Source: Amoebophrya sp. A120 | Taxonomy: Eukaryota; Protista; Dinoflagellata | Length of the DNA: 64,000 bases | Direction of reading: 5' to 3' | Assembly: GCA_905178155.1 (NCBI GenBank) | Contig: CAJINV010000003.1 | Location: 10,411,732 to 10,475,731, forward strand | Shown here: piece by piece, positions 9,041 to 37,273 of the stretch | Layout: every line of letters starts with the position of its first letter | Numbering within the stretch: the first letter of the stretch is position 1 | Notes under the pieces: generated by a model | What the model was told of the DNA's origin: nothing | The model's input: the letters and a program-made list of their open reading frames with translations, nothing else | Databases searched by the model: none | Translations under genes and position numbers: made by a program

Positions 9041-9044
9041 TTCG

Positions 9045-9330: not shown

Positions 9331-9529
9331 ACAAACCCCCGAAACCCTGCCTCCCCGGTTTTACAGCTTTGAAAGCGAAGAACGCGAGGAGGACGGGGAG
9401 CATCGGGAGAGTGGGAAACACGGGGAACGCGGGAAGCACGGGAAAAGCGGGCGGACAGAACCGGAAAGGCGGGGCAGAAAGCTAACAAAGGGCAAGGAAG
9501 CGGGCGGAGGGCACGGGGAAAACAGGCGC

Positions 9530-9760
9530 GGCGCACGGGGAAAGCGTGCGGGAAGCACGGGGACAGCGGGGGGCACGGGGAAAGAGGGGGGCACGGGGAA
9601 AGCGGGAAACACGGGGAAAGCGGGAAGCACGGGGAAAGCGGGAAGCACGGGGAAAGCGGGAAGCACGGGGAAGGCGGGAAGCACGGGGCGAGTGGAAAGC
9701 ACGGGGAAAGCGGGAAGCACGGGAAAAGCGGGAAGCGCGGGGAAGTAGGCGGGAAGCACG
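9530..9760. repeat. 18-bp G-rich minisatellite (CACGGGGAAAGCGGGAAG)
   Basis: About a dozen tandem variants; the source of the spurious GSTGKA and PAFPVL ORFs. Confidence 0.9.
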
Positions 9761-10015
9761 GGCGGAGGGCGCACAGACGGCGGGAGGCAAGGGGAACGCC
9801 GGCGGCGGCCAAGGAACAGGCGAGCAGCCCAGCTCGCTGCTCAGTCACCACCCTCCCCCGGCGCCCTCCCTCCGTTCGCGAAGATAGGGAAGCCGCGCCG
9901 AAGGCCAACACCAGGCTTGCTGGCGAGCAGCTGCCCACCACCCTCCCCCGGCGCCCTCCCTCTGTTCATGAGGAGACCGGCAGAGGGCGCCACCGTCCGC
10001 CGTCTCTGTCTCGGA

Positions 10016-10604
10016 GGGTGCGCGCGGGGGAAGCAGGGGGGGGGGGCGGAACAGATTGCATGCGAGCTACCGCGGGGGGCGCCATTGTTGTCCGGGGGTG
10101 CTGGGGGAGGGTGGTGGGCCCCTGCGCCTTGGGGGCAATAAATGCCTCGCCCCGGCGCCCGTCCTCCATCCACGCGCGCGGCAGGGGCCCAAGCGAGCCC
10201 CTGTTCTGCAAGGCTGCGCGCGGGAGAGCGCGGGGCGGGTGGGGCACAGAGGCAGGCGGGGCACACAGGCACGCGGCACGAACGGGCCACACCGCAAACG
10301 CACGGGCGGGGCAGGGTGCGCGCGGGGGAAGCAGGGGGGGGGCGGAACAGATTGCATGCGAGCTACCGCGGGGGGCGCCATTGTTGTCCGGGGGTGCTGG
10401 GGGAGGGTGGTGGGCCCCTGCGCCATGGGGGCAATAAATGCCCCGCCCCGGCGCCCGTCCTCCATCCACGCGCGCGGCAGGGGCCCAAGCGAGCCCCTGT
10501 TCTGCAAGGCTGCGCGCGGGAGAGGGGCGGATGGGGCACACAGGCAGGCGGGGCACACAGGCACGCGACACGAACGAGCCACACCGCAAACGCACGGGCG
10601 GGGC
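10016..10604. repeat. ~300-bp tandem duplication
   Basis: 10016-10313 is repeated at 10314-10604 with few differences. Confidence 0.9.
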
Positions 10605-11446
10605 GGCACGCGCCTGCGCCTCGCATGGCGCGCACTGTTCCCCTGCTTCCTTTCCCCGGCCATTGGCGCCCGCCCGCTGCCGCGCTTTGCGTTGTTGCTT
10701 GGGCCTATGGCTTCCGGCAAGGCACACGCGCGCCCAGTGCGGGCGAGGTCCTCGCGCCCGAGCAACAACTGGACCCACGGGCGCCATGGTGCTCCGCCTT
10801 CGTTCCTTCAGCAAGAAGCGGCGCAGATGCCTGGCTCCGCCCTGCTTCAAAAAGTTTTTCCCTTGCCCACCCCATGGCGTTTTTCTTTCCCCCCTGTCCA
10901 CTCGTTCACCCTCCCACTACGCGGCATAAGCTGCGGCCTTGTAAGACTAATGATTCATCATGAAAGCGATGCACTTGCACAGGCAAGTAAAAGTATCCTT
11001 GCTGCTCCGCAAAGTGAGATAGGAAAAATCAAGAGAATGCTGGAGCGATCGCGATTCAACAGAAATATATAAAATGCAAATTGCGAGTCAGGCACTTCGA
11101 ATGGTGGATCACAAACGAAAGAAATAAATCGACGAAATAAAGATAGAGAGAAAACGCGCAACATGGTGTTGGTTGCCGCAAAACCTACCTGAGGCGATGG
11201 AAAAATGAGGGCAAGCAAGAACATGTTGTTTTCTGGCTTTTTTGGTTTCTAAGTCTAAATTGTGCGGTCTAGGTGTAATTCTTGACCACCACTGGTTTGC
11301 ATGTGCATTCTTGTTGCTCCTGATATCGGCCTCCTGCGGCTGCACTCATCTTTGACTTGCTATGTCTTCTGGGAAGACACTGGTGCATCGCGCTAACTTC
11401 AGTCCTTGACCATCCTTAACTGTTTTTCGCAGTTGTGCTGAGAACT

Positions 11447-16313: not shown

Positions 16314-16722
16314 CTATGACCACGAGCTTTTTTCTTTCCACATTTGGTGGACCAAAACTTCGTTGATCAGTTCAAACTGCTGCGCGCCCAGGCCGCCATT
16401 CACCGCGAGCGGATGCTCAGTTTGCAGAACCGACGCCCTGGCTTCAGATACACTAACTCCGCAGACTAGGAATCGCCACAAGTCCTCCCTCATTTGAAGA
16501 GTATGAGCCAGATTTGATGAAGTGCGCTGGTGCCTCCAGTCGCTCTTCCAGCACATACACCAAGAGAAGTATGCTTACCTTGACATCCCGATCGCCTGCT
16601 CGGAGAGTGCTTAGCTCTCGACACTGCCTCAGCTTCGGCCATGCTTTTCTGATTTTCGAGTCTAGTGACAAACTACTGACTGTGCGCAAGTCTTGCACTT
16701 GGTGCGAGCTCTTGGTGGCCAC
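16314..16722 (-). CDS. Possible terminal exons of a minus-strand gene
   Basis: Two adjacent minus-strand ORFs with an AAG|GTAAGC donor near 16578; no recognisable homology. Confidence 0.25.
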
Positions 16723-16758
16723 GGGCGAATAGTTATAACGTTCCGTATGTCTTCTTTT

Positions 16759-16803
16759 ACAGCATGGCTACATACGTAGTTACTACGTATGTAGCCATGC
16801 TGT
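16759..16803. repeat. Perfect 22-bp-arm palindrome
   Basis: ACAGCATGGCTACATACGTAGT-T-ACTACGTATGTAGCCATGCTGT. Confidence 0.97.
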
Positions 16804-17184
16804 TGTCGGCCGTTTGAGTATGATAATGATTGCTGCAGTGCACCATCAGAAGTGGGCTGTCGCCCGTCGCCTTTCTGTGCGCACCATCAGACGCGCATTA
16901 AATCGCGATGCTTGTAAGTGTGTATAACTCCGCGTTGATCACTAAGCTCGGTGGCGCTTTTGTTTCCGGCCTGCTTTACTGCACACGCAAGAAGCTCGCC
17001 GCTGGGCCTACAAGCTTGGGGCTTAACTCTCCTGTTCGACTTTCTCTCTTCCCATGAGGCGACGGGTCGGGAGATTGTTTTGTTGGGGGTTGAAGATGCT
17101 CCTCAGCGCTTAGGGTTCTTGCATCTTCTGGACACCGAGCGTGAGGGTGGTAGCGCGAAGTGAACCCCGATCGGACTTCCCTTC

Positions 17185-17288
17185 ACTGCTAAAACGGGTG
17201 GTGTTGCGTCGTCCGAGATGCCTGGCTCTCAATGCAATCCAGTGCAAACAATTAACATTCAGGAAGGTTAGGTGGTTACAACAGCAGT
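17185..17288 (+). ncRNA. Candidate structured RNA module, divergent copy A
   Basis: ACTGCT-AAAA-CGGG...AGCAGT multi-stem fold shared with the 20390-20540 and 33546-33695 copies. Confidence 0.4.
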
Positions 17289-18399
17289 TTCTGGCTCGCC
17301 TTGGCAGCTCGTACAGTGCCGAAGAAGCTTGCGCTAAATTGTATTTATGTCGGATTGAAGCACCTACGCTTCCGTGTAAGTATTCATAGTGTCTTGCCGG
17401 CGCCGGTTCGCCTGGGTCATCTTCACTTGCCAGTAACTACGACTTGGAAGTTGCGGCGTCCAGCATCATCTCATGCAAGATCTCGTGCCAAATGCAAAAG
17501 ACGGAGAGTCGAATACGAATTGTGAGGTTTCGCTTTATTTTGCATGAGTACTACAGCTACAAACGAGGGAGGGGGATTTGCGGACTCTCCATACAGACGT
17601 GAAGCGTCTGCTCGCGGAGCAGACCAAGCGACTCAACCGCGCAGCGGGGCGATAGGCAGCTGGTCTTAATTGGCGTGCTTGTATACTACAAATGGTAGTG
17701 TTATATATATTAAGAGAAAAAAGTAGACGACACCGAGTGGACCACGAAGATCACAAGTTTTAATTGTCCTACGGTCTACGACACGTGGAGCAGGAAGATT
17801 TTTTGTTTTCCTTTTTGTTTTTGTCTTTCGCTTCCTCTTCTACAATACATGCAAGAGCCGAAGTGCAGCGCAACATCAAAAACATAAACAATTTATGATA
17901 TACATTTACATCACCTCTTGCTTGCGGTACAAGTTGAAGTTGTTACAGAGAGCAACAAATTCGACAAGAGAAAGCAAAGCTAGACTTTCCTCTTGCGTTC
18001 TCTGGCGATTCCATTTTGATTTGCCGACAATGTCAATGTTGAACAGCTTTGCTTTATTGTTTGGGTTGTGCATCGCGGGAGTCGGCCCGGGGGGCCCTTC
18101 TGATTGCCATTTGGTTGATTCGGCGGCCCGCTGTGTGGCTATCTATCCGCCACGAGCGCAGCGCGTAAGTCATCTCAGTGTCAGAGTAGTCAGAGAGCTG
18201 CAGCTGCCTCAGAGCGGGGGCGGGCAGATTTCTGTAGACGATCAAGTAAGAGCAAAACGAATAAAGGATGCTCACGCTACCGCACTTCGATTTTGATGTT
18301 CGGCACTTGTTCATCACCTGTTATAGTATAGTGCTTTTTAAGCTACCGCTAACCCTATGCGCCAAAAAATGAGTCCGCGTTCACAACTTTTCTCCCTCT

Positions 18400-21300
18400 T
18401 TGCGGCGATTTCGAATCGCAGTGGATAGAAGAACAAGGCGAACGTGCTTCGTGTTCTTTGCCCTTCTCGTCTGCCCGTTCGCGGGCCGGGAGCACGAACA
18501 TGATGCTGATAATTACTACAAACATGAAGAACCCATCAAACAAGAACGGCTCAACATATTAAGTCACTATGCTTACTCCGAAAGCGGGGGTCGTAGGGTC
18601 CGGGTCGCCGGGCCCGTCCAGAACTTGCGCAGTACTTCGCTGCGGATGTTTCGCCTCTGGAATTTCAGAGCCTGTCAGGCACAAGATGGAGTGGTCTTGC
18701 GAAGCTAACAAGTGCTCCCAGTGTCGCACTCCGCGAAACGGAGCCGGGCTGTTGCACTGAGGTCGCCCCGGGGTCGCCCCCAAATGTTATGCGACGCGCC
18801 AACATTTACATTTTGCGCCGGAAGAGGCTTCGGCGTGTCGGCGCCGCGCGCGCCTTCTCCTTGGTAGGTACCCAAACCAGGCCGCGAAGACAGGCCGCAG
18901 GGACCGCCCGGCGGTGGCTTCAATTCCAGAGGCGTTTCGTTGTCTCCCTGCACACTTGTGCACTTCGCGCAAATGAGCTGCTGTGGCAGCGCCATCGCGT
19001 AACGCACGTTACACGGCGGCTCTCTGTTTCACTTGTGCCTGCCCGGCCGTGTCAATAGTGCTCCCCTTGGCGGCCGCTTTAATTTCAGAGGCATGTCCAT
19101 GCCTATATGCACGCTTGCGCACGTTGCAAAAAGCTTGCCACCGCCGTGCCATCGTGTAACGCACGTTACACGACGGCCCTCTGCTTCGCCGCAGCCCCCT
19201 TCGCGTGTGGGGAGCTGTGTGCGAAAAGCCTTGCCGCTTTGGGTTGTAAGGAGGCGCCCTCGTCCTCTCCTCTGGGTAAGGCGCCCGCCAGCTAGCCATA
19301 AGAGGGGCAAGGCGCTGCTGGCTCGCCTGCCGGGCTGCGTCTCTCACTCTTGGTAAGTGAGCAGCGGCCCTCGCCGTCGCCTTCGTGTCAGTCCTGGTTG
19401 GAGGTGGTGCGCGACTGTGCTCACCCTCGCTCGCAGCTGCAAACAGGCGACGGCCCTTCTGTTTTGTTCCTGATGCGCCCCGCCGAGAGGATTTCTTTTT
19501 CTTGTGGCGTGCGGGCCTTGTTCTCCGGGATCCTCGATTTAGTGGCGCGCAGCTACCCGCTCCGACTGGAATTTAACGAAGTTTGCCGGGTGAGTGTGTT
19601 TCCTTTCTTTCTGCCGGACCAATTGAGTTGTAGTTTGTCATGCTCACAACTGTGTGATACCATCAGGATTTCGAACAAGAGCTTACCCCATGCCGACCCG
19701 GCGCCACGGGAAGGCACTGGGATGACTTCATGTGGGGGGCTGGCGAAAACGTACAGGGGCCTTCTCTTTTTTTTTTCCGTTTGGCCAGCGGACAGAGGGC
19801 GGCTGGGGATGCCGGCCGCTCGTTTCCAAATAAAACCAAGGCGACCATCTTCATTGAGTAGACTAATCTACTGAAGCAATAAATAGAAACTTCAAGACCG
19901 CGAAAAAAAAAAAGAAAAGAAAGCAGGAAAAAAAAAGAAAGCGATGACCTGCAGTGCTATCAGAGAAAAAGAAAAGATCCTGAGGAAAAGAAAGAGAAAA
20001 ATCATAAAAAGATGCGCAGAGCTCAGGCACTAAAGTCGCAGGGGTGGGTGGTGTATAAACATAAAAGCGCCACGACCGATAGCACACACAGAAGCGGCAA
20101 GAGAGAAAAAAAGAAATAAACACCATACCTCCCTGCGCAGGTTGATCAAGCAAAGTGTGAAAAGCTTCGGCTATGCACGGCGCTTGGAGGATCTCGTATA
20201 CCTGTTGGGCCCTTGGGCACAGTGGTCAGGCTTCGGCCGGTTGTTAGGTAGTCCTGTTCGACACTAGGCGACCACCGGAGGAGAAGGGGTTGCCTGGTGG
20301 TTGGTCGGGGGTTAGGACGAGTGCCACGGATGAGGAGGTAGTGGCGCTTGTTCTTGAATGCCAGCGGCAAGAGGAGGCGCCAATGGCAAACTCCCACCGG
20401 GTGGCCGGTCACTGCTAAAACGGGCGGTGAAACGTCACCCGGTGTGCGGAAGGGTTTCACTCTTCTGCAGATATTCTTACCTTCAGGATTACGTAGCAGT
20501 ATGCGAGAGGATTTTTCCCGCTCACCTTAAGAAGCGCACACGTCATTCTTTTTCTTGTGGCTTGTGCTGGTTATTTCCATTTGTTCTGCCGCTTCTGATC
20601 TGCCGCTCGGTGGGTGTTCTGCTTCTTTCAGAGCTGCGGTCGGATCTTGGCTTGGTCATCCGCAACTTCTTTGGAGATTCGCCGGTGTGAAGCTTCGTCC
20701 GGAACTTTTTCCACGATTGTCTCAGAACTTGCAAAAAACTTGTTTTGGAACTTGCAAAGTTTTTTTTTTTGGCTTTTCTTTTTTTCTCGTTCCGCGATGG
20801 GATAGCCAATTACAATTTTCCGCCTTTCTTTTTCGGTCTGCGAAACGTTTTTCTGCAAGTTCCGAGACAAGTCTGCGGACAAGTTCCGAGACTAGGTCCG
20901 GAAAAAGTTCCGAAACAAGTGCCGCCGCAAATTTCTGAACAAACCCCAGAGCAAGTAGCCCCGGAACAAGGCCCGGGGCAAAGCTCCTGCGTGTGCAAGG
21001 GCCCCGCGGGCAGGCTTCTGGGGCGCTAGTTTCGGAACAAACTAGCTAGGCCCGCTACATGGCCCATGAGGGTGGTCCGGGCCGTCGCGCCGGCAAGAGT
21101 GTGGCGTCGGTCTGAGGGCGCCGACCTTCGCCACTGCCAGTGGGTCACGTCCTCTGGGAGGGGGCGGTGCTCTGGTGTGATCCTGTTAGAAGGCCTCGCA
21201 GCCCTAAAGGGCGGCCGTCGGACCGCCCAGGGGCGGGGCTTCCGGGACTCTGAAGAAACGGCAACGGGGTTTCATGGCGTCGGAGGCAGCCTGGGTGCTG

Positions 21301-24300
21301 GCTCGGCGCAGCCAACAAGCAAGCTTGTCTCCCCCGCGGCGCCCGGTGTGGATGTGTCGGCCCCTGTCGTCCGGTGGGCCCGCGGAGATTGTTTCTATTT
21401 TGTTGTCATTGCGCGCGCGCCCGAAGCGCTTTGTTTTTATCACATTGGAGCAAACGAAGCCGCGCGCCATCGTGTAACGCGCGTTACGCGACGGCGTTGT
21501 CGTTTCGTCCTGTCGCCTGCTGCGCAGCTGTGGCATGCTTCCGGCTCCTGTAGAAGCACTGTTTCACCACAGAGCGACACTCGCTCTCGCGTCCCCCCTC
21601 TGGCGCAACACCTCAAAGAAAGGCCTCCTTTCATGTCGTGCCGACAGCCGCGAGCACGGGCGCCCGCTCGGCTATAGGGGATGCATGCTGCATCGCGCCC
21701 ATCTTCGGTTGGTGTGCAAGCGTGTTTCCGTAGCGTTTGGTCGTCGCTGGGGTGGTTCGTCTCGGTGGGCTGCTGCCTCGCACCAACATGCAGCCAGCAA
21801 CCACCTGAGCAGAATAAACCGGTGGAAGGCTCCTCCTACTGGGGCTGGGCCCTCGTTGCCTGGCACCCCGGCGCCCTCTCGTATTGCCCCATCCGGGAAT
21901 CGGCCCGACAATTTCTGGGCAAGTTCTGTGCGAGTTCAGCGCCGCATACATCTAGACCCATGCTTTCGGAGTAACACTATGCGAATAGTTGTACTGGAAC
22001 CAACACGACCTTAGCTGCTTTCGCCGTCGCTGCGAAAACCTTTGATCTCCGCCGGAGCCGGCAACCACCGGCATCCACACAACGGGGCGCCGCACCGGTG
22101 CGCTCTTTTGCGCTTCACAACAGCAGGCGTCAGGTGTATGAGGAGCATGTTGTGTCGACTGGTGAGGTCGTTTGTCGTGCTGTTTGGTCCTGATGCGAGA
22201 ACGTATTGGAGCGACGGGAACAAGAGCTTCCTTGTCAGTGGGCTGAGCATCCAGAAAAGCCTCCACCAGAGAGATGCATCTTTCACTTCGGCTTTGGGAA
22301 CTACATCAAGATCAACGTCCAAAACGGGAATTGAGAAGACCTGGAAAAATGTCGTTGCGCAGGAGAAGCAAGAAGTAAAGGATAATGCGCAGGAGCTCTT
22401 AGGGGGGACTGCCGGTGCTTCGAGTGACGACGCTTCGCTGAGTGCTGCCGCGGCAAGAGCCACAGATGCAGCGCTCGTCGAAATAATCGAGGCAAACTCA
22501 AACGAACACCACCACCCTGTGATCGTTACAAACGGCGACCCCCGTTACCGTCCTCGCACGATAACGAGACCAGGACGAAGCCAAAACGAAGCCAATCGGG
22601 CAGCTTTTACAAGGGCCCACCTCTGGCAACGCAAAACGCCGGCAAGTTTTCCCATAGTGGTCGGCCGAGACGTTTACAGGGCCCCCAGCCTCTGGCGTTT
22701 CTGCTGCAAGTAAGCGGGGGCGCCATTTGCGTTGTTCGCTCTGTGGGCTCGGGCGCATCGCCTTAAGCATAGGGAGAAGCCCGCCGGCGACGCAGCGTGC
22801 CGCCGGGCTCAATTTTTGAGCCGCATGGCACTACAGCAAACGCAAAAGGCCCTGGCTGTCGGCGTCGCAGCGCTTTGCGCTTCCCACATGCCCAGGGGGC
22901 GCCGCTTTCGTCTTGCCTGCCTGTGGCTACTATGCGAAGCCCCAGCGCCCCGCGCAGTGCCTGCTATATTCAAATCGTTACGGCCGCACTTTGGCCCAGT
23001 AGATATTTGCACGCGGCCACCCCTTGCCGGCATCGCCGGAAAACCGAAGCCAAAACGAGGCCAAAACGAAGCCAAAGGGCAAAAAAGCCGAGGCCAAAAC
23101 GAAGCCAGAGCGAGGCCAAAACGAGGCCAAAACGAGGCCAGGCAACCGCGTTGCGTGTCTGGAAGGGGAACGCGAAAAGTTTTGGATTTTTGTCGTCGCC
23201 CGGCTCGCGCTGCCGTGCCGCCGTGGAAGCGACACCAAAACGAGGCCCAGACGAGGCCAAAACGAGGCCCCGCGGCCTAATTCTGGGCCTCATCTTTCCG
23301 GCAAAAAGTTGCAAGGCTTGGCCGCATTTTTTTCGGACGGCTTTGGCTTCGTTTTGGCCTGGTTTTGGCTTCGTTTTGGCCTGCGCCCTTTCGGACCGTT
23401 CTGGGCCATTATCTGCAGCAGGGGCATGGGCCCAACTTCCGCAGCAGGCGCGAGGACTTTCTTATTTTGGACAGCGAGCGGCGTCTAGGTGGGGGCACCC
23501 GGTAGACGAGCTCTGGCGTGGTCATTGACTAGCGCGGGCACTATCTTTCTGGTCGCAATCCGATGCGGCTCAAAATTTGGGCCGCGTGGCATGCTGCCCG
23601 CGAATCGATAGCCCCGTGGCCCATGCCCCAGTATGGGCATCAATATGAAGAAAATAATTTAGACTCCGCGGGGCGCGCTAGTCATTCTGAGGCAGTTGCA
23701 GGGACCACGCGCCGGCGGCATGGAGTAGAGCTACACAGCCCCCGGCCGCGACGTTGTCGGCGCCCGCGCGAATGCCAAAAAGCGACAGGCCTGGCCTCGT
23801 TTTGGCTTCGTCCGGGTCTCGTTCTCGGGTCTCGGCGGTAATGGGCGCGCCGTTTGTAAGATCGGCGCGGCCGCGAATGGCGGGAATTCGTCAAATTCGT
23901 CAAATGACACAAGGAACCACGCGGTGGACAGTGTCGCTATGGGTTGTATGTGGGCGATTTTCCAGCTGCAGCTGCTAGCCGCGACTACTAGCGAATAAAA
24001 GCTAGGTTGTTAGCATGCGGATTTTCCTAGTATAGTACAGTTTATGTTGTGATAGTGATGCAAAACATGAAGAAACTGTTTCTTCATGATAACGATCAAA
24101 CAAACAGAAAGCCTACCAAGCCCAAAGTTACTCCATAGTACACTTCTGCATGCAGTTGCGTGGTGTGCTTTTGCAATGACAAAACATAAACACAGACAGT
24201 GGACGCGGAGCACTTTTGCAAATCCGCATAGCAGAAGGAGGCTTCGATTTTTTGTTTGGGCTAGCAGCAGTTCGTTGCTCAAACCACTCACCTCCTCTCT

Positions 24301-26050
24301 CTTATAGACGTCGATAGGAGCGACAACGCAACAGACAAAGTGTTCATGGCTGAAGGCGGGATCCACTGCAAATGTGTGAACGCAGGATTTTCGTCTGCAG
24401 GTGGCCGAGACAAATTCGTTGCGCCAACGTTTGATGCCTACGATCAGGGGTGGTTAAACGGAGGTGATGACTTTTCCGATACGGAATACGGAGTGGGCTA
24501 CGCGTACTTCCCTTTTTTTAAAAGTAGCGTCTCCGTCGGGCGGTTGAAAGTTGTCACTTTGGAATGAGAAACAGTCTACAGGTCGTACAGGATGTAGTAG
24601 TAGTAGTAGGACTACTTAAAGGCACGTAGAATTAGAAAAAAGTAGAACTGGAAACAGAAGTGAGTGTTTCAAAATCTTGAACCGATTTGACCCGCCTGAT
24701 TTTCTTGGAGCACCCTGCATGCGCGATTTTGACAAAACTGAACGAAGAGCTTTCGTTGTTCATCTCACAGGTCTGACTATGGGGGCATCTCAGACTACGG
24801 AGAGTATTGCTTCGCCTGGGAAGATATCCTGTGCAAAAGTATCGCACTCGTATTGCAGTCATGCTTTACAAATCTCTTTCGTAAGGTGAATCAGCATTAC
24901 AAATTTCATTTCTCATGCTGAGTGGTGCATTTGCATACGAGTGCGATAATTTTCCAACTCATAGAAGATATCCTTTGCATACCGATGGCGGTCGTACTCC
25001 TTTGGAGGAATTCAGTTGCAGAATCTGCATCGTAGCAAATCAGCACTGTAAATGCTTATCGTTATCCTCTTACCTTTACATTTACTATACAACGGTGCGG
25101 TGTCTGAGTTGCGGAAATCTGTGTAATATGCAACTTTCCTGCAGCGTGTATACAACGCATCACTACAGGTCAAGCAGAAGCACGGCATCAAAATAAAAGT
25201 AGAAGCTCGCTCCGCCTACTATCGTGTGTACCCAGACTTGGCTTTGATTTCTGGTGGACTTTGCATTGCAATATACGCATTTTTCCATCGTGCGGCCGCC
25301 TACAATAGTTTTGCAATGCAGCGAGGATGAGACCGTTGGTGGTAAATCCGGGGACTTTCCTGAGTGCAATCCAGTAGTGATGACTAGCAGGATATCAAGA
25401 TGAAAACTGCCTCAGCCCAACAAGTTGAAGTTTCGAGAAGTGGTTGCTTTGCAAATTGAGAAACTTGACACGCGGCAGAAACACCTTGTTTGTCTGCCGT
25501 AGCCGTGTGAGCAAATTGCAACGCAGCAGTGGCGCTGCGATGTGAAACAGTGCTGTAGTTCACATTCTCATACTCATGATCGACAAAAAGGCTTTCAGGG
25601 TGGGTCGTAAATATTTCCTATGCCTGGGCTTGGGCTGGGGACTCTCGCCATTTTGATCCAAGACCGAGGTCGTTGATACGTTCAACATGTATGCATTGCA
25701 TATATGATGTCTTGGTCTGGAAGGTTGCAACATCGGAAGCTGTCTTTGGATTCTAAAAAAATAAAAAAAAATCAAGAACAGCGCCCGTATTGCATGACCA
25801 GCAAGAGGCGTTCAGTTTGTGCTACGCGGGGAGCGCATTTCTCACAGGCGGAATAGGCATCAGGATGGAAGCCCTCGAAAAATTTGTGATGCTAGGGTGT
25901 GCGTCGTGGGTCATGCAGAATATGCATGACAAGGCTGGCATCAATCTCGCAGACCCAGACACGTTTGCAGTGGATAACATAACAAACGGACATAAAAGTG
26001 TTTTTGGTCGTGGTGCAGCTTCTTTGACTTTGACAATACACTGCATCAGT
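18400..26050 (+). CDS. Multi-exon uncharacterised protein with an N-terminal hydrophobic segment, interrupted by two large TIR elements; limits uncertain
   Basis: Frame is restored across both elements (LSHYA|NSCTG and HPVIG|AAANGGNSS); further exon-like blocks at ~24400, 24650, 24915 and 25790. Confidence 0.45.
18573..21974. mobile_element. 3.4-kb TTAC...GTAA TIR element with 8-bp TSD, inside an apparent exon
   Basis: TIR TTACTCCGAAAGC/GCTTTCGGAGTAA, extending imperfectly inward; CACTATGC at 18565-72 and 21975-82. Confidence 0.92.
20390..20540 (+). ncRNA. Candidate structured RNA module, copy B (inside the 3.4-kb element)
   Basis: ~150 nt shared with 33546-33695, with stem-preserving substitutions. 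Confidence 0.5.
22526..23859. mobile_element. 1.33-kb TTAC...GTAA TIR element with 5-bp TSD, inside an apparent exon
   Basis: TIR TTACAAACGGCG/CGCCGTTTGTAA; GATCG at 22521-25 and 23860-64; internal GCCAAAACGAG 11-mer arrays in both orientations. Confidence 0.92.
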
Positions 26051-27283
26051 ACAGGAGATGCACAAACAAATTTTTAGAGTATGATTTACATTTTTTTGAT
26101 GTTCGAAGTCGAGCACCTCCGTTTCAGGTCTGGTTCTGTCCTAGTCACAGGGACTGTGTCCAATAAAGTGCCCGTGTTAACATCAGATGCTGGAGGCGCG
26201 CATTTTTGTCGTATTGTGCCATCTAAATAAGAAGATGAACAAGAGCAGTCAGGACCAGGAGATGCTCGGTTGATAGATGTTTTTCGCATGGAACTAACAT
26301 TCACCACCACTATCACGCAGTTGCATCCGGCGATGGCCTCACTTTTTGCTCAGGATAGCATCAGACGCAGTTTGACGAGTTTGGTATAGCACGCTCAGGT
26401 GTTACAATCTCATTTTTTGTACTGTGAATGTCGATGGACAGGTTAACGGGTTTTGTCTTGCATGAACAACAAACAGGACGTCGAACGCGCAAAGCCAAAG
26501 TTTTTCCTTTGTCTTTGTTATGTATAATAATGCTAATTCCAGCGGGCGGCAGCGGCTCAGGTGTTGTTTAAGGACGATTAATAATGCAGAACTCGCCACG
26601 CGCATTCCGATTTGGCAAGGAATATTTGATATTTCAGAGTATGGTGCAGTTTTCATTTTTTGGATGGCACCAAAAAAACAAAATTGAAATTAAAATTTCG
26701 GAAAAATGGAAATCGTATCAGCTGAGATTGTAAAAACTCCTGAGCGAGGTATATTTGGCGGGAACACGACGGTAACCGTCACGGTGACACAGGTGATCAC
26801 CGAGGAGAGGAATACGGTAGAAGTGTCAGGCGGGAAGTCGACAGCATGAAATAAGTAGGATTTGTTTCCAGGGCGTAAAAAATTTATTGCCATCGCAAAA
26901 AGTTTGTGTATGTAAAGTAAAAGCAAATCTATCTCTATCTGTATCCTCACCGAATTCAATTCATTTGGAAGAGAAGGAAGCTCGGCCGGTTGCAGGTTTG
27001 CTTCGGCTCGGAGTAGGAGAGGAGGATGCGCGAGACCTAGCAGAGCCTTGGCCTTGCTTCTTCCGCAGCACATAGCACGAAAATTCCTAGTGACTGTCCT
27101 TCAAACAACATCTCCTACTTCTTATAGTTTAAAATCGGCTTGGAACAAGGTCAAGCTCAGCTTCAGACAAATGCGCCAGCACATCTAGGACCCACGGGCA
27201 ATATATAGCGACATTTCGACGGTTGCGGCGCTGTTGTGCCTCTCTAGCACGTCGTGGATCGTGATACACCTGGGGGCTTCTAG

Positions 27284-29768
27284 GCTAGACTTGCTATGAC
27301 GTCCGGCCCGCCAGGCGTAAAGAGGCTTCTGCTGCTCCAGCTTTATGACTCTCTGGGTGGGACCACATGCCCCGGATGTATGGACGAAGAACGTTTCGCG
27401 CCGCCGCCCATTCTGCTATAAACTATATTTACAACCATAACGGGGGGTCTAGTCACCGGCTCTAGAACTTTCTGCCCGCGGCCTTTCAAAAGATGGAAAA
27501 GAAAGGTCGGCCAGACGGGCAACTGGGCGAGGCTCTTGGGAGCGCTCGCCAATTGAATTGCGCCAGCCATTTGGCCTCTGCGGCGCCGGAGCCGCGCTGT
27601 TTCGTTATGATATCTGTTGACCGATATAACGCGAGCGCACTGGCATCGGTCACACGTGAATCACAGGCGGACTCCTCCCGGCAGCTTTCTGATTTATTGC
27701 TATCCTGAGCAGACGAGTCCCGCCGTGTTCCGCGATAGGCTTTGACTTCGGCGCCGAAGCTGGTTGCTGTACCTTTTAGATGCGAAGCATACCTTTGTGG
27801 GTAACCTTTTGCATGGCGGCACTGCGTAGAGGCAAAAACGCGAAGTCGGAAAATGCTGCTTGAAGTCTTAGGCGAAACGCGATGGCCCTAGCGATTTTAA
27901 AAGTTTTCTTTCGGCCTTTTCCGCTACTCCTGGACAATGAAAACTGACGCTACGACGCCACTGCTCGGGCCGCTCATCTTTTGGGCCACGACCTAACAGT
28001 AACAAAGGCAAAAGAAAGCTTTTAAAAAAATTTTGAAACCACGGAGCAGCAAAACACTAGCGGAACCCAACCGACTCCGCCGCCTGGAGCTTCCAAAAAG
28101 GCGGCCGGACTAAGAGCTTTGTCTTGAATGCTCTTTTCGGGCCCATTCTTTTCGGACTGGAAAAAGCTTGGACTTTTTGGCGTCCGCCATAGTACCGCCG
28201 CGCCAAAGTCAGGGGCGCCCCAGCACCGATGGCATTGATTCTGCTGCCGCCTCTTTGCGTTTTTTATACTCTTCGGCGAGCGCTACTCTTTTCTTGCGAA
28301 AGCAATCCGCCTTGGAAAGTGTCGGGGATTGTAGTGTTGGGCCGGCCACCTCCTCTGCGTGCCAAGTTTCTGACCTGGGAGGTAACAAAGGCTCGCCCGC
28401 CGTTTCTGCTTAGCCGTTGCAGGTTTTCGCAACCCGAGCCGCGCCGGCGCCTCCCATACCATGAGCGAAAAGCTTGCAACACCCAGGAGCCGCGCCTGGC
28501 TCTGCTCCTGGGGAAAACTAGAAGAGAAAAAAAAGCAGCAAGGCGGCAGCACTGCCGTCGGTCACTCCTGAATCGCCACGGTGTGCTGCCGTAGCGACCA
28601 CCCCCGACACAAATGGGTCCAAAACGTTCGCGGATGGCGCCCGGCCCTGTAGGACAAAAGGCGGGCAAGTCTTGGCGGCTTCATGTTGTTGGTTTTCTCT
28701 TGTTTCAAAAGTTTTTGAGAAGTTTCCGCGAAGTTCTGGCGGCTTAGTACAGAGCCCCCGTTATGGTTGTAATATTTGTCGTGTGGCGGTGGCGGTGCTT
28801 CCGCTGAGAAACTTGGGGGCACTACACGCTAAAGATTGTCCCACTTATTGAGATTGACGATTTCCCAACGCCTGACGCTGTCATAAGGAACAACACCGAC
28901 CGGCCGGAATGGTGTTCCAAAAAATGGTGCTACATTAAGGAGGTCACGACGCAGCTTGGGCAGGTCAAACTGTACCCGGAACAGCCGAAGTGCTCGAGTA
29001 TGCAAGCGGAAGGTGGAGCGAGCCTTTCAGCAACGACAAGGGGGCTTGGCTACTACTTTCTTGCAGTTTCAGCAAAAAGATGGGGGCAAAAGTTTGCATG
29101 TTTTTTTGTACCTTTTATAATAAAATTTATTTTGCTTTTGTTCGTCACCGAGCAAGCTGTGCGAGGCAGCGTCTAATCTTGCAAGGGAGTGAACACGTAC
29201 TAAAAGCAAAATACTTGGAGAGACGAAAGAGCCGCGTGAAAACCTGGGCGGGCCCGCAGCTAACAGCGAGGTGCTCGGCCCCCAGGTTGCCTCCGGGCCT
29301 ATCGGCCGTGGTGTCGAGGCTTGGGGCCTTGGCCTGGGTTCCTAACACCTGTTCGTGGTTGGCCGCCACGAGCTCAGCTGGAATCAGGCTCTCTTCCGGG
29401 CTTCTTTGTCCTTGGCTCTGCATGGGGCGCTGCTGGCGTCGGATCCGATCTTTCACCTGTAGCCCCACGCCTGTGGCTCTGGCGATCTTCAGCGGGCCGC
29501 GTGCGGCGCCGCAGCGATCATCCGGCCCGTTGCGACCCATCTTCACTGCAATGCAGCAATTTTCGTCAACAACACACCCCTTCAACGAAAATCGCAGCTT
29601 CACCTTAGACTTCCATAGAAAATTTTGATGATGTGACAGCGCGAGTTGATGGCGAATGGACACTCTACTTCTCCAGGAAATATTGCGAGACGGAAAGTCT
29701 GAATGGCCACCACAACAAAACCCTCCACAATCCAAATAGAACAGACGTGGACTTTACAGAGATGAAAA
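27284..29768 (+). CDS. Exons of a Cys-rich, probably extracellular protein (may belong to a larger gene)
   Basis: GT-AG intron 27393-28808 joins TCPGCMDEE|QTWGHYTLK...RPEWCSKKWCYIK; later exon ...WTLYFSRKYCETE at ~29620-29768. Confidence 0.5.
27429..28772. mobile_element. 1.34-kb TTAC...GTAA TIR element within a canonical intron
   Basis: TIR TTACAACCATAACGGGGG/CCCCCGTTATGGTTGTAA; flanks TATAT/TATTT. Confidence 0.85.
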
Positions 29769-32580
29769 GTATCTTCCCTCTACATACGACGTCGTATGCA
29801 TTGACATTCTGCAATTATACCATGCAAGAGCTGCAAGTCGTGCATTTTCGTACATATAATTCCCATTCGTATTTTTTTGAGTTAATGGGTTCGAACACAA
29901 CAACATAGGTCCTTGTCCCACTGTGTTGTTGCGTTGATGTGCCTCGACGTACATGCCGCGAACACAGTTATCAAGACGAGCTGGAGCAGTAGATGAGCTT
30001 GATGTCATTTATCTCACTGCATCCTGCTCCTTTTTTTACTTTTATCTTTCCTGATGGAGGTTGAACAGAATCGCAGTCACCGCGGTTGTGCTTCTGAAAC
30101 AGAGAAGGTCGTGCGGTGTAGTCAGGGAAGACCTTTCTTGTCTATGGGTGACCTGCACCGGCAAGACAACCTGACGTCAATATCCTGCAAAAAAGTAGCG
30201 CACCGAGACTTCAAACTTACCTTGCTACTGCTTGGTCTTGCGTTTTCCTTCTCACTATTGTGGTTGTGGACCTGTGCGACTCAAATCGATCAAGCGCTTG
30301 CGTCTGTACCCTAGATATTATATAGATACACAGTGTTCACTGTTGGTTCTTCAGATCGTCCATTGTCCTCCTTTTGCATGACAAAAAAGCAGACTCCTGG
30401 CGCACAGGTGTTATGATGTATGAGCATGAGGCGCGCGTGCAGTCGGGTACGCATGACGAAAAAAATAACGCCTCTCTACTTTCTAACTCCGCTACAGAAC
30501 GAACCATGATCGGGTTGAACAGTACCAGGGCGAGGGCCTTTTGGGTCCAGGAGGTGTATCTTCTTCATATATTTTGAAGATCTGGGTGCCCTTTTCCACA
30601 TGATGACCAAATACCTCCACAAATCAAGCAGATGGATATGATCGCGACAAAAGTTACCAGCACCAAGAATGCAACTTTCTGCATCCTCCTGCCCTCCAAC
30701 CTACACGATCACGTGCTCTCAAGAGGCACGACTTTGCGTTTATTCCATGATTGAGGGTTCTATGGAGAATTCCGTCAGGCAATCAACCGGCCATCAGACC
30801 GGCAATAAATAGAGCACAGATATAAGCATTAGAGCAGGGGGTGCTGGGCACCATGTTGATCTCGGGCGTAGGCGACGAAGAGAAACACAAAAGTCAACTA
30901 GAGGTAGAGAGTTAATCTGTGTTCAGAATGTCGGCATCAACTTTTGTTTCCATAGTGAGCCGACTTTTTTCGGGACAAGGCGAAATGAGTCGAAGCCCCC
31001 AACAAGTTTTGTGCGGAAGCAACCAGTGGGGATCAATCGGAGAAGACGAGGCCTTCGCGAAATTGAGGAAGAAGACGAGCACCTCAGCCACCTCGAACAC
31101 ACCGCGGACTCAGCAGATGCAGCGTTTGGATTCGTCCAACAAGCCGAACAAAAATTGTAAGCCTTCCTCGAGAAGCATAGGAGAACCAATCTCATCATCA
31201 TGCACACTATCGTTGGAAGCTAGCGGGAACTTCACATCCGTTGGAAGCTAGCGGCGGGCCACTACCAGACGGGATCTGGCGCGGCGTGGGATTAGGGCGT
31301 GGCGCAATTCTGTTTTGCTCACCGTAAAAATCCTGAAGCTCATCCACTATAGCTATACTTGTCGAAAGAAGAGGGATGAGCTTGAGTTAGAAAGAGAACA
31401 AATCGCTCTCTTCCTTGAAATCGCTAGCGAAGAACACGAGCAGTTGGTGAAGTTCTTGGGATTAGTCGTCCCTCATCGCTTTCCTCCCTATCGAAGGGGA
31501 AGCGATGACTTTTTATTTTTTGTTAAAAGCCAAATAGAAAAGCGAAGACGAAGACCACATGGCGAGCGATATATGTCATACAAGTGCAAGGCGACATCGT
31601 CTTCCTACAATTGCACTGATGATTGATAACTAGAAAGTTTGAAAGTGAAATGCTATTAATACAAACTTTTCGTAAAGTAAGACTCAGCATAAAAATTGCA
31701 AATGTACAAATACGAATACCGAAGAAAAGCGCATTTCTATTTTACATCATCATGAAGCATGTACTTGCCAATAAAGATAGAATTGAAAGTGGAAACGGAG
31801 CTGCAGGCGGCATCATGTCTGTCAATTGCACATTTGTCGCCAGGCCGCAAACCTGAAACCTAGAGCAGTAAAAGTAAAAGAAAGTATGAAGAGAATCTTG
31901 ACTGTGATGCTTCAAGAAAGTGACCAGGTGCAGGTCGTGGAGTTTTTTGCGAAAACAAGTCTCTTGCCAAGCAAGTCCAACAACAATGATAGCAGCATCT
32001 TCTTCAGCCTGTAACAGGTTCAGGAGACGAGGACACTCATCGGATTGAAAGATCCGCCGTCCCGGGAGCAGCAGCCTCCCACCTTTACGCGCAGCAACAT
32101 GCAACGAGGACGTGGGGAGCCCCACTCGCTATAAGTGAAAGAGTGTCAAGGCCTTCTCCGGAACCGGAATGAGCATACCCAACATCCATGCAAATGTCCA
32201 GCACACTAAAACATAAACAGTATATTCATACTTGTTAGCGTTACCTAGTTCGTTGTTGCAAACAAGCTGTTGCAAATTCTCTTCAAAAGCGTGCAGAAGC
32301 CGAAGCGTGTCGTGCTGGCCTGTTCTCTTGAAAAATATGCAAGATAGCAAACTACTTCTCGCTTTCTATGCTGCTGAGATTCTGAAATCACTAGAATCGC
32401 GACACCCTTGCACATATTAAGCACAGTGTGGTAAACGATTCCGCGCTAACTTTAATATCGCTCCGGCGCTTGAAGATTTGCGGTCCTCACGATTTTTTTT
32501 TGTATTGAAAACAACGTAAGTAGAAGTGTCTGCATTTCGTGATCTACTCTAGTACTGAAATTCAAAAGCATAAGCATTGG

Positions 32581-35500
32581 ATGTTTTTTCGCATCACCAA
32601 GATGTTTTTTCGTTTCTTTGTGTCTCATGTGCTTAGGGCGTATGCTCTACCGTTGCCGACTTCCACGGCCACTTCCCGTGGTTCGACGCTCGTATTTCTG
32701 TTGTCGTCCTGCGCAACCTTGCAAACTGCGAACAGCGGATCGCTCGCAATAAAATCTTCTGCTCGGAACAAGGAGAGGCGCTACGAGAATGCGCTCGAAT
32801 GGGATTTTTATCTTGCTTTGTCAAGGACTCGTGATGATGAAGGCGACAAGCAGGAGCAGAAATTGATGTCTGGAAAACAGCTGGAGGCTTTGTCTTCTCA
32901 TATCGATTTTGCATCTCGCAATCCCATACTTTTCATCGGCGGCATGGGAGCAAGTATTATCGAAGCTACGCTGAACAAAACCACGGCTCCGCGAGAGTTT
33001 TGCTGGAAAACAGCGGAGAACTACCGTGTGTGGCTCCCCTACACTGGCCTGCTGCCCGGATTCGCAGACTGCTTCTTGGACAATTTCAAGTTGCATTGGC
33101 GAGATGAGGTGGTAGAAGAAGACACTGAGGATCAAGTTCAAGGCGGAGGCGGACGGATTGCTCGTAGCGACCGCTCCGATACTAATTTGATGCGACAAGA
33201 AAGTAGATCCTCGGCCTCACGAGGCGGACTCGCGCCGTCAATGTTTTCAAAGAAAAGACGGACGTCGTCGTTGGTTCTCGATGAGTCAGAGGTGCAAGCG
33301 TATGCGCTCGGGGACAGGATTGCACCCGGCACCGGCGGTCTCACGGATGGTTTGGTGAAAGGGCTGTGGGAGGATTTGGCCAAAGTTGCTACGGACAGCG
33401 TATGGCGCTCTCAACTCTAACATTGGTCGTTGTTGCAATTGCATATTGATAAAATATTTCTTACGTACTAATAGCGTCTATTTCTATTTGTGGCCGGTCA
33501 CTCGCTAATTTCTTAAGTGCTAAGTGTAAGTGTTTCTAACTCGTCCTACCGGGTGGCCGGTCCAGCTAAAACGGTTGGCGAGACGTCATCTGGTGTGCAG
33601 AAGTGTTCCACACCTCTGCAGATATTCTTACCTTCTTGGATTACGTAGCAGTATGCGGGAGGATTTTTCCCGCTCACCTTAAGAAGTGCGCGCGCAATTC
33701 TATTTCTATTTGTGATGGTGCAAGCTCACGCTTTGCAAAGCCAGCAGAAGAAGAAGAAAAACAAAAAGGGAAGCTGCTTGCGCCTTGAGCATTAGAAGCC
33801 CGGCACGGATATCTATGTTGTTGTGCGAGTGCGCATTGAAGACTTATTATCAACGTAGAGCGAAGTAGCTTTATCATGCAAAGAGAGAAACTAGTACGTA
33901 GTAGAGCCTCCTGTGCCTGTAGTGTAATACATGGCATCAAACGTTGAAGCAGCAATTGTGTAACAGCGACGATGGACGTAACGTCTGAGAATTCTATACC
34001 GTGGCAAGTACGCCAAAGACATCAACCCCAAACAGATTAATCTGCTCACCTACGATTTCCGGAAGTCGCCCACGGAGTGGATACGCGACGGCACTTTTGC
34101 ACGCACGAAGCGGCGAATTGAACTGTATGTAGACACGTACAATGCGGGGAAGGCTGCGGTTCTGGTAACTCTGTCGGAAGGGTCCAACTTCCTGCACCAG
34201 TTTCTTGCGTTGTACGTCGACGCGCAGTGGAAATCGCAGTACGTACGCCATTGGCTTTCCCTATCCGGACCTTTCGGGGGCACGCCGGAGCTGACTCGCA
34301 TGGCCTTCTATCCACAGCCCGTCGATGTGTACCACTTGCCCCAGTTGCTGTTTTACATCAAACTTCGAGAGCTGCGAGACGTGTCGATCACTTTCCCTTC
34401 AACTTTGGTGGGCACTCCAACATACCTGACCGCTACGGAAACTCTGGTTGTCGACCACACCGGCAAGAAGTATACCAAGAATGCTGCGGCCTGCTCAGCT
34501 AGAACAATCTCAATCGGAACAAGAATTTGCCGCGACCCAAATAAAGCCGGCTGCCGCGGACGATGAAGATCATGTTCATCAGCATCATCTTACTTTGTGC
34601 TTACTAGCAAAGAATTTATGAAGCAGCTCTGAAATGCTTACTGTAGGGATGGAAAATGTACAAAAGTTTCATACCTATAAAGTACTAGCGAAAAAGTGAT
34701 TATATATCCAAAAAATGGGCCGCATATTTTCCGGCTTCGAAATATGCGGCCCATTTTTTGGATATATATCCACTTTTTCGCCCATATAGGCACTACTTAA
34801 TAGCACGCGGCCGGCTGCTTTTCTAGCACGGTCCGACCGTGCTAGTGGGGACGCCGAAAAATGCAAAGACTGGTCGCCATGGTGCTCATAACAGTGCCCG
34901 ACCGTGTTAGCTAGTACTTTATAGGTATGAAACATTTTGCAGCTTTCCATCCATAGCTTACTTTCAGAACTAGCGACGCCAGCTTCGCCTGTAAGTGAGC
35001 GCATCGAAGCGCTCAAACGCCACCTCGCCAGTTCTAGACAGCAGATTGATCCAAAAAGAAAGAAGTGCCGGCGGTCCCGGAGTTGATTCTGGGACTCAGA
35101 ATCAGACTCGACCTTGATTTTGAGACGTGTTTCCACGTCAGTGAGGCGACCACACTGCTCTTTTCTAGTCGTGTGCCAGGTTGCGAACAGATGCAAGCCC
35201 GCTCCTGTCTATCGAGGAACTGAGTAAGACGCAACGCTATGCGCCACCTAATTCCGTCCGTCCGTTCTCACGTCAGAGAGGCGACCACATTGCTCCTTCC
35301 TAGTCGTGTGCCAGTCCGCGAAAAGATGTAAGCCCGTGGCTGTCTAGCGAGGGACTGAGTAAGAGGCAACGCCAATCACCACCTAATTCTGTCCGTCCGT
35401 TCTGCAACTCAAACTCAAACTCGTTCGCGATTGTGCAACTCATCAAGCTCGAGTTGTCGTGCTTGATTCTGAAACTCAGACTCAAGCTCGACCTTGATTC

Positions 35501-37273
35501 TGAGGCTCAGACTCAAGCTCGACCTTGTTGATTCATCTAAAACTTAAGCTAAAAACTGACTCAGGAACTGGAGCTGGCGCGTGCATTCTTTTAATCCAGC
35601 AAGGCAATTACTTCTCTACAGTTATGTGTATGGATATCATATAGGTGGATCAAGTCCCGCGCTCGTTGATGATCGTCGCCATTGGCAAGGGACAGCCGTG
35701 CAGGTGTTGCAGTTCAACATAGTGCAAAGGCGCAAAAAATTTTTTGGGTCGTGTTTCCAGATTAGGCTGCGAGTAGGATTAGCCGTCCTCGCCCCCCCCA
35801 GGCTGTTGCGTACGGCGGTAAGGAATCAGAGCGCGAAGATCAGTGCTAGCGAGCAGATAGGCAAGCCCGCGCGCCTGCTGTCAAGCAGCAAGCTTGCGTA
35901 TGGCGGATGGAGAAAGGTGAGCGCAAACTCTGCCAGGCGCGCGGGGCTAGCTTCGCTCCGTGAAGATCGAAAATGTGCGCCGGTTTGCCGGCAGCCGCCG
36001 GAGGAGCGGGAAGCCGATCGGGCGTGGGCCTTCTGCATGTGAGGGGAGTGCGTACGCAGCCCATCCCCAGTGAGGTCTGGGTCTGCGGCATCTACACCCC
36101 GGCAGGAGGTTCGCCGGCGCTTCACCTTCGGGGCTTTGCAAAATGTGCGCCGGTTTGCCGGCGTGCGTCTATGGTTCAGCATGATGTAGCGTGATACTTT
36201 GAGAATGAACACAGGAAGCGCACGGGCACAACGCTCGCGGCCAAAAGTCTGGGACAGGTCGCCGCGCACTCCTGTAAAGATATACAAGCAAGAAGCGAAC
36301 CCCCACAGCGGGAATGTCGTGTCTGTGTGTTTCGGAGGATGTGTTCGGCCTAGTGATGATCTTTATATATCAGCGGGCTGGCTTGGTTTGGCGTGATAAA
36401 GATAAAGACAAAGACAAAGGCTATATCTCGCGCGAAGTTGCACTTGCAGGGCGAATAACCGTACGCGTATAGTATTCATTGACACCCATTACTTTTGCCG
36501 TCCTTGGTTATCTACATCGTTCCAGTCAGATTGTTCTAGTCTATCAACCCATAAACAACCTTGCTGAGGCTTTCCAAGACGCCGGTCAGAACTTCACAGC
36601 GAAACTGCTCAAGATGCAGAAGCGTATTGCTCTTGGCATATGGAATTGGATGAAGTACAGGATTGACACTGCGAGCAAGCGTTTGTGAAGTTGTTTCTGA
36701 TGTTACGGACCACACAGTTTGGTATTCGTTTTGAGATTTCATTTTGTTTGATTTTGTGCTATTCGGAAGTGCGAGAATGAAACTACACAAAAATTCGCAC
36801 GAACAGAGTACTTTTTTGATGCGCTACCGGGTCCAGGCGTTCCGGTGACGTGCGTGTATGGTTCGGGTTTACCCACGCTCGCGAATATGACTTACGGGAA
36901 CGGGTGGGACCAGGAAGGGACCGAGTTCGGCTACGAAAGCGGCGACAGCGTCGTACCGGTACGGTCTTTAATTCGCTGCCACGAGTGGAATGAAATACCG
37001 CGACATCCGTCTGTTGAGCTCGTGGAAGTCCCCCAGGCCTCACACGGCGATACGCTCCGCCGACCAGAAGCGCTCCACGCGTTCAGGGAGATACTTCAGG
37101 CACTTGACAGCTCTGCCGCTGCTCTCCAGGAGCATGATGTAAAAGTACCTGCTGATGTCGTGGACTACAAGGAGCGCGGACCCCGAGGAACAGAACCAGC
37201 AGCAAGAAGCGACATAGAGGGCGCTCACGGGCGAACCGATCATGACGCTGAGGAAGAGTTGTACTACATTTGA
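32581..37273 (+). CDS. LCAT/PLA2G15-family phospholipase/acyltransferase; exons ~32581-33384, 34009-34481, 36559-36623, 36807-37273
   Basis: PILFIGGMGASIIEA, DCFLDNFKL, YDFRKSP, VLVTLSEG (Ser), LSGPFGG, VTCVYG, GDSVVP (Asp), SHGDTL (His). Confidence 0.88.
33546..33695 (+). ncRNA. Candidate structured RNA module, copy C (in LCAT intron 1)
   Basis: Homologous to 20390-20540. Confidence 0.5.
34630..34967. mobile_element. MITE-like foldback with a nested ~42-bp-arm hairpin (34688-34781)
   Basis: Perfect 23-bp IR TTTCATACCTATAAAGTACTAGC; inner IR TATATATCCAAAAAATGGGCCGCATATTT. Confidence 0.8.
35090..35610. repeat. Dispersed relative of the satellite-bearing repeat, with two 135-bp units
   Basis: 35134-35403 matches 2150-2385; the end TTTTAATCCA..GGCAATTA matches 8693-8711. 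Confidence 0.88.

Follow-up and report, generated by a model that had tools for sequence, protein, structure and literature searches.

To our knowledge, most 3′ signals known from retroposons consist of one or two hairpins, or are folds the size of R2 that belong to a coding element. Stringent long and short interspersed elements (LINEs and SINEs) are recognised through structured 3′ ends (PMC3747384, PMC11194090, PMC6007223; all articles in this text are cited from excerpts), and the RNA of the R2 3′ untranslated region (UTR) is a template signal in target-primed reverse transcription (PMC11194090). Amoebophrya sp. A120, a dinoflagellate, contains retrotransposons of the kind without long terminal repeats (non-LTR; PMC7789003, PMC12130899), and most of its repeats are unclassified (PMC7789003). 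Here we analyse a 64,000-nt stretch of A120 contig CAJINV010000003.1 (hereafter the window), in which the original prediction had placed three copies of an RNA module of ~100 nt. Alignments of these copies with related loci indicate that the module does not stand alone and forms the 3′ half of a longer, dispersed element (~430-460 nt), represented by two subfamilies that are ~50% identical. The element is probably a non-autonomous, SINE-like retroposon that would spread by target-primed reverse transcription in trans, with the tail and the folded 3′ region serving as its signal. No description of it was found in the papers searched, and the REPET and introner consensus libraries may hold it unnamed; its core 10-mer is absent from the 12 of 14 supplementary files of PMC12130899 that were searched, in which long cells were cut.

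Copies, extent and insertion junctions

Positions are given as window coordinates; c1, c2 and c3 denote the window copies, and L001, L002, L003 and L007 denote related metagenomic loci. All strings quoted in the original prediction are present where it placed them, and its three copies are real and related. Specifically, c2 (20392-20555) and c3 (33544-33707) share 86% identity over 165 nt, and c1, a distant relative, has 20 of 21 nt in common with c2 by blastn. Profile searches with nhmmer and a covariance model, both built from these copies, recover exactly c1, c2 and c3 within the window; a 12-mer with up to two mismatches occurs there at chance level (6 found, 5.9 expected). A pattern scan of metagenomes returned 15 loci, four of which, all from one single assembly, are members of the family: L001, L002, L003 and L007 are related to c1, with which they share 81-96% identity (81% in both the 445-nt alignment with L002 and the 351-nt alignment with L007). 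The remaining 11 loci match the motif only, at no more than 17.5 bits, and were discarded as chance. The same type of scan gave no match in prokaryote genomes; in viral contigs it gave none and then three, which were rejected, the best having 4 bits under the RNA model.

With the added loci, c1 (subfamily 1) and c2 (subfamily 2, with c3) align over ~430-460 nt, at ~50% identity in the core. Three copies, c2 (at 20128), L002 and L007, have a common 5′ start at CTCCCTGCGC, and the other four (c1, L001, L003 and c3) begin further in and are thus 5′-truncated. A T-rich 3′ tail is present in 6 of 7 copies, and L001 stops at its contig end. Similarity ends abruptly at the common start. In particular, L002 and L007 are 84% identical inside the element and unalignable upstream of it (109 of 200 shuffles score equally well), c2 and L007 have no match upstream, and c2 and L002 have a marginal low-complexity match only (score 80, null maximum 77). 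A-rich sequence precedes the start in all three copies.

The junctions carry exact target-site duplications that overlap the tail: 16 bp in c2 (~1.05 kb apart), 16 bp in c3 and 15 bp in L007, hence 15-16 bp in three of the five copies with both junctions visible (L001 and L002 show one junction only). Among 1047 T-rich windows between 12000 and 48000, 22 have an exact repeat of at least 14 nt within 1.1 kb upstream, and all 22 overlap the ends of c2 or c3. Self-comparison of the window shows no terminal repeats, either long or inverted, at the copies. Every copy bearing a duplication also has additional sequence at its 5′ junction (~50 nt in c3, 57 nt in L007 and 620 nt in c2), the 5′ junction of L001 carries short tandem re-copies, and c3 and L003, which belong to different subfamilies, both begin near the boundary between helices P3 and P6, within ~7 nt of each other. 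Judged from sequence, the duplications, the common 3′ end and the variable 5′ ends are the marks of non-LTR retroposition.

The 620 extra nucleotides of c2 open with a piece of an exon from a gene that encodes a CCDC81-like HU-domain protein (A120 protein P0007, with Pfam domains PF14908 and PF18289). A GTGAGT donor follows directly after the exon piece, at 19590, and is unspliced. We read these nucleotides as host pre-mRNA that was added during copying of the element, through read-through or a template switch. On this reading, the insertion illustrates a way for elements of this kind to relocate fragments of host pre-mRNA.

Contigs of X1, a genome-sized run, were mapped onto c2 only, at 80% likeness, and 83 contigs were placed. 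Their summed depth rises toward the 3′ end and falls beyond it: 102 at 20174-97, 973 at 20366-89, 3444 at 20510-33 and 148 at 20558-81. At 20553-57, 16 X1 contigs and 3 contigs of run X3 have loose ends into unrelated flanks (among the 12 of 59 loose-end entries listed). X3, which contains pieces of the family, may be an RNA run; the raw RNA runs X9 and X10, in which presence of the organism was not shown, gave no reads on c2. Summed depth does not translate into a copy number; because single contigs reach a depth of 40-50, we infer that copies number in the tens.

A covarying multibranch fold

The plus strand of the element folds as a multibranch domain of ~260 nt. A consensus computed with RNAalifold on the four long copies contains 115 pairs, of which 37 are changed on both sides. 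In a core of 69 pairs, 96% of 276 cells are paired and 32 pairs are double-changed, compared with 5-11 in slid controls. Consensus energies lie far below those of column shuffles that preserve gap and conservation classes (60 per set), with z of −8.2 for five copies, −5.2 for subfamily 1 alone and −11.4 for L007 with c2; none of the 60 shuffles reaches any of these values. The minus-strand consensus reaches z −7.3 and −2.9, its energy and covariation terms being weaker, and c2 alone gives z −7.4 on the plus strand and −2.6 on the minus strand, in agreement with the strand originally proposed. Other contigs, which were not used to build the fold, supply 31 variants within the domain (from 40 of 89 entries listed; unphased) and hence a partly independent test. 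Measured against the fold of c2 itself, 5 of 7 double-changed pairs stay paired, and 5 variants fall at unpaired positions.

The apical hairpin P6a, with its AAAACG loop, is the most conserved block of the element; its helix is without covariation support because 6 of its 7 pairs are invariant in the four long copies. A short helix joining both ends of the element and a 5′ hairpin are tentative additions to the model, in which 3 of 11 pairs are double-changed (2 of 5 in the end-joining helix alone).

The stems of the original prediction fare unevenly against this consensus. Its AAAA linker is present, and its TGC...GCA stem with differing interiors holds well: 3 of 7 pairs are double-changed, and a contig loose end adds a further compensated interior. 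For the closing stem and the 9-bp stem, better-supported alternatives exist. Specifically, the AGCAGT strand that was to close the module with ACTGCT lies in different alignment columns in c1 and in c2/c3 (126 and 115), the best downstream partner makes 6 of 6 pairs in only four of seven copies (4-5 of 6 in the other three), and in c2 a linked-looking change from G-C to A-U at 20243/20497 pairs the AGCAGT strand upstream instead. The 9-bp stem pairs in 96.8% of cells, with no double change among its nine pairs, a C·A mismatch in c2 and a U·U mismatch in c3, and its 3′ strand has a better partner immediately upstream of the predicted coordinates, where 4 of 6 pairs are double-changed. Both alternative helices fit the sequences, and a structural switch between them may exist. 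The proposed fourth stem is absent from the consensus, in which CAGGA, the 3′ strand of that stem, closes a long-range helix.

The prediction that the fold belongs to no known family stands. Rfam searches gave no hit in the window at gathering score. At E up to 10 they gave eight hits in 16500-21500, none of them on c1 or c2, no hit over c3, and a single weak match in the four related loci (Xist exon 4, E 8.8). No copy is thus matched to small nuclear RNA (snRNA), signal recognition particle (SRP) RNA, RNase P/MRP RNA or any other family.

A probable retroposon copied in trans, and the alternatives

The copies carry the sequence marks of a non-LTR retroposon. A strict SINE head derives from tRNA, 5S RNA or 7SL RNA and contains an internal promoter for RNA polymerase III (Pol III), and no such head was found. 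The four main frames of the copies seen have no match to a reverse transcriptase or endonuclease, and longer copies that encode one may exist elsewhere. The features of U1, of known ribozymes and of introners are likewise lacking. ARAGORN found no genes in the window or in the four loci. The mobile structured RNA first proposed gains, from the insertion marks and the covarying fold, firmer support than the original prediction could give.

In the cycle that we propose, the element would be transcribed chiefly within host transcripts, as a passenger. A protein of LINE type, provided in trans, would bind the folded 3′ region, nick a T-rich site and prime where tail and target match. Copying would proceed toward the 5′ end and usually halt early, often at stable helices, as suggested by the shared halt of c3 and L003 near the P3/P6 boundary, and would sometimes overrun the element or switch template into host pre-mRNA, as in c2. 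By analogy with stringent LINEs and SINEs, the fold and the tail are likely to be what the enzyme binds.

Several observations weigh against this proposal. With regard to insertion, the duplication of L003 is merely 7 nt and c1 has none (two of the five copies with both junctions; no exact repeat of at least 9 nt was found for c1 within 6 kb upstream), and 17 of 1000 random windows likewise carry an upstream repeat of at least 14 nt. With regard to the fold, it was derived from, and scored on, the same few related sequences of two subfamilies; the subfamily-1 copies taken singly are no more stable than their shuffles (z 0.08, −0.83 and −0.22 for c1, L007 and L002); one-sided contig variants keep pairing in only 6 of 12 cases; and against the four-copy consensus only 2 of 4 double changes hold, these variants being unphased. 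With regard to the machinery, no Pol III promoter was found (A box in none of seven copies, B-box pattern in one, ~130 nt inside, as judged by consensus motifs), and a search short of the whole genome turned up neither a driver element nor a reverse transcriptase. Finally, a conserved tail common to many diverged families would yield the same 3′ pile-up of contigs, and most copies seem to retain just the last 50 nt, so that binding of the enzyme may not be what the large fold is for.

A first alternative, which we consider unlikely, is that an autonomous LINE, with a coding part outside the sequences sampled, has these 430-460 nt as its 3′ UTR, that the copies are truncated LINE copies, and that the fold works in cis, like that of R2. 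Such copies would bear the same insertion marks, and R2 3′ UTRs have covarying helices, H1-H5 (PMC11194090). Moreover, a lysine-rich open frame ends just before the common start in c2 and L002, the two copies with the marginal upstream match. Against it, similarity between L002 and L007 stops entirely at the common start, a host exon rather than a retroelement frame opens the 620 nt upstream of c2, and the upstream frames have no Pfam match.

It is improbable, in our estimate, that the 400-nt fold, closed end to end, represents an undescribed class of functional RNA, either a host ribonucleoprotein RNA or a new ribozyme, turned into or carried by a retroposon. If true, such a reading could touch splicing in this lineage, where introns are non-canonical and U1 has escaped detection.

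Quite improbable is the related idea that a working non-coding RNA of the host is, or gave rise to, the element, with the copies as its retrocopies and, at the extreme, a stand-in for U1. The defined 5′ start, the U-rich 3′ end, the retention of the fold across 50% divergence and the tentative end-joining helix fit such an RNA, and PMC7789003 reports that U1 was detected in neither A25 nor A120; against this, U1 has been found in Amoebophrya sp. Kv (PMC12005148), and the copies match no host RNA family in Rfam. The original prediction had linked CTTACCT, which is complementary to a 5′ splice donor, to splicing in the manner of U1. In c2 this motif lies ~350 nt from the element start rather than at the 5′ end, and in other contigs it is interrupted by insertions. 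The hallmarks of U1 are ACUUACCU at the RNA 5′ end, the U1-70K loop, the U1A loop and an Sm site. Searched as exact motifs, ACTTACCT, both loops and the Sm site occur in none of the seven copies on either strand. Because CTTACCT is internal and found in 2 of 7 copies, and because no other hallmark of U1 accompanies it, the splicing link is not supported, and the element is unlikely to be the missing U1 snRNA. A tempting false lead is thereby removed; no long-standing question is settled by this in itself.

A self-cleaving ribozyme, belonging to a retrozyme-like or Penelope-like element whose ends are set by cleavage, is a very improbable reading of the fold. Penelope elements keep introns, and c2 carries an unspliced donor; the AAAAC of the loop is invariant, the c3 and L003 starts agree within ~7 nt, and re-copied pieces occur at 5′ junctions. 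On the other side, the starts of the copies differ widely, the hammerhead core CTGANGA is absent from the plus strand of all seven copies, no conserved pseudoknot of at least 5 bp occurs among the unpaired columns, and Rfam gives no match to known small ribozymes (hammerhead, hepatitis delta virus (HDV)-like, twister, twister-sister, pistol and hatchet). As a separate observation, HDV, hammerhead, twister, group I/II intron, SRP, RNase P/MRP and telomerase RNA were considered by eye against familiar consensus features and with Rfam, and none fits.

Hardly credible is a decayed coding fragment or DNA-level repeat with covariation as a by-product, for which speak open frames of 124-126 aa on either strand and a codon phase with fewer mismatches between subfamilies (10 compared with 18 and 19; not significant by estimate), and against which speak double-sided compensation far above shuffles, frameshifting indels between copies, no codon bias among 37 variants within subfamily 2, no homologue of the four main frames and no terminal inverted repeats, such that a coding origin is disfavoured for now on both strands; the slightly more conserved phase leaves some room for an old one.

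Surrounding features and comparison with known systems

Coordinates of the element copies, the helices, the junctions and the associated host sequence are given in Table 1.

Table 1. Positions of the element, its predicted helices, its junctions and associated host sequence in the window.
Feature	Position	Strand	Remark
c1 (subfamily 1)	16916..17346	+	~30 nt short at 5′ end
c2 (subfamily 2), full length of common element	20128..20557	+	Alignment to L002/L007; 3′ end 20553-20557
c3 (subfamily 2)	33544..33707	+	5′-truncated at P3/P6 boundary; retains only P6, P6a, P7 and tail
c1 multibranch domain	17024..17270	+	P1 closing; P2/P2a; P3 with P4, P5; P6/P6a; P7
c2 multibranch domain	20241..20500	+	P1 20246-56/20484-94
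c2 P2; P2a	20259-62/20304-07; 20265-75/20286-96	+	
c2 P3; P4; P5	20308-13/20389-94; 20314-21/20347-54; 20359-68/20379-88	+	
c2 P6; P6a; P7	20397-402/20437-42; 20410-16/20423-29; 20445-51/20462-69	+	
Most conserved block, apical hairpin P6a, AAAACG loop	20409..20429	+	Also 17183-17203; altered 33561-33580
CTTACCT, single-stranded linker preceding P1 3′ strand	20476..20482	+	Subfamily 2 only; also 33627-33633
Left duplication of c2, 16 bp	19493..19508	+	Exact match to 20546-20561
84-nt exon piece of CCDC81-like HU-domain gene, 5′ end of c2 insertion	19506..19589	+	27/28 codons match P0007
Unspliced donor, intron-like then A-rich sequence, in c2 insertion	19590..20127	+	Host intron or element leader
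T-rich tail and right duplication of c2	20546..20561	+	
Left duplication of c3, 16 bp	33477..33492	+	Exact match to 33699-33714
Extra 5′-junction sequence of c3	33493..33543	+	Opens with short re-copied piece of element
T-rich tail and right duplication of c3	33699..33714	+	
Annotated first intron of LCAT-like gene, holding c3 in sense	33400..34002	+	tblastn of P0001: exons 32581-33399, 34003-34491

The intronic location originally given for c3 is correct: the c3 insertion (33493-33698) lies inside the annotated first intron of an LCAT-like gene, the four exons of which are 96-100% identical to A120 protein P0001, and does not form the ends of that intron. As annotated, the same intron ends in GT rather than AG (33995-34002), has a short repeat at both ends and is therefore non-canonical by annotation. 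The second intron of the gene (34492-36553, ~2 kb) contains nested inverted repeats at 34644-34955 and 34688-34781 and looks like an introner or an insertion of a miniature inverted-repeat transposable element (MITE).

Two further repeats adjoin c2. The 11 nt preceding its left duplication (within 19485-19508) repeat a stretch 36 nt inside the c2 3′ end, possibly as a longer likeness of tail to target or as the remnant of another copy, and a second repeated sequence follows c2 directly (20590-20745; contig depth 84-190, loose end before 20610). Nearby, a weak twister-sister match at 20959-21039 (22.7 bits, gathering score 34, E 0.16, several broken pairs) is probably due to chance, and a near-perfect 47-nt palindrome at 16757-16804 gives rise to spurious microRNA matches.

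Elsewhere in the window, a tandem array at 2196-8600 comprises ~49 copies of a 130-bp unit at 98% identity and has no Rfam match at gathering score. A 237-nt direct repeat (1-237 and 10709-10943, 90% identity) flanks this satellite and short tandem repeats at 8840-10620, and the two direct repeats may be the ends of one large element. Long inverted repeats resembling MITEs or foldback elements, with arms of up to 193 nt at 94%, are present at 22521-23863, 50842-51366 and 63136-63884. Coding sequences include a CorA transporter (53172-55169) and an open reading frame with a family 29 glycosyltransferase (sialyltransferase) domain (56309-58645, E 9e-30).

Among described systems, U1 snRNA resembles the element in its multiway junction and in the complementarity of the subfamily-2 CTTACCT to the donor site; in the element, unlike U1, that motif is internal and unconserved, and no 70K or U1A loop, Sm site or Rfam match accompanies it. 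The introners of A120, including the non-LTR families fam3, fam7, fam99 and fam135, are alike in being mobile and intronic in the same species (PMC12130899, PMC7789003). They may be set apart by their descriptions, in which the duplications listed for the non-LTR families are 2, 3 or 11 bp, or none is given (PMC12130899), and c3 lies inside an intron rather than being a whole intron with direct and inverted repeats at the splice sites.

The R2 3′ UTR of Bombyx mori shares with the element several covarying helices near the 3′ end and little sequence conservation (PMC11194090). In contrast to R2, the element targets dispersed T-rich sites rather than 28S rDNA, has long duplications and has no open reading frame.

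A further likeness is to stringent SINE/LINE pairs (the RTE-related Au-like and Sauria SINEs, L2/UnaSINE, and SINEs with CR1 tails), which share 5′ truncation, a structured 3′ end with compensatory changes, a T-rich tail and a T-starting duplication that matches the tail (PMC6007223, PMC3747384). Reported duplications are 7-15 bp for RTE and 7-18 bp for L1, such that the 15-16 bp of the element fit the L1 range and equal or exceed the RTE maximum (PMC6007223). One family of A120 repeats gains a proposed mechanism and an RNA structure model. The element would be an unusual retroposon, non-coding and without a Pol III head, in which a ten-helix fold of the body is kept across 50% sequence divergence. 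Unlike stringent SINE/LINE pairs, the element has a 260-nt multibranch fold rather than a single hairpin, and neither a tRNA, 5S or 7SL head nor an A box was found in it.

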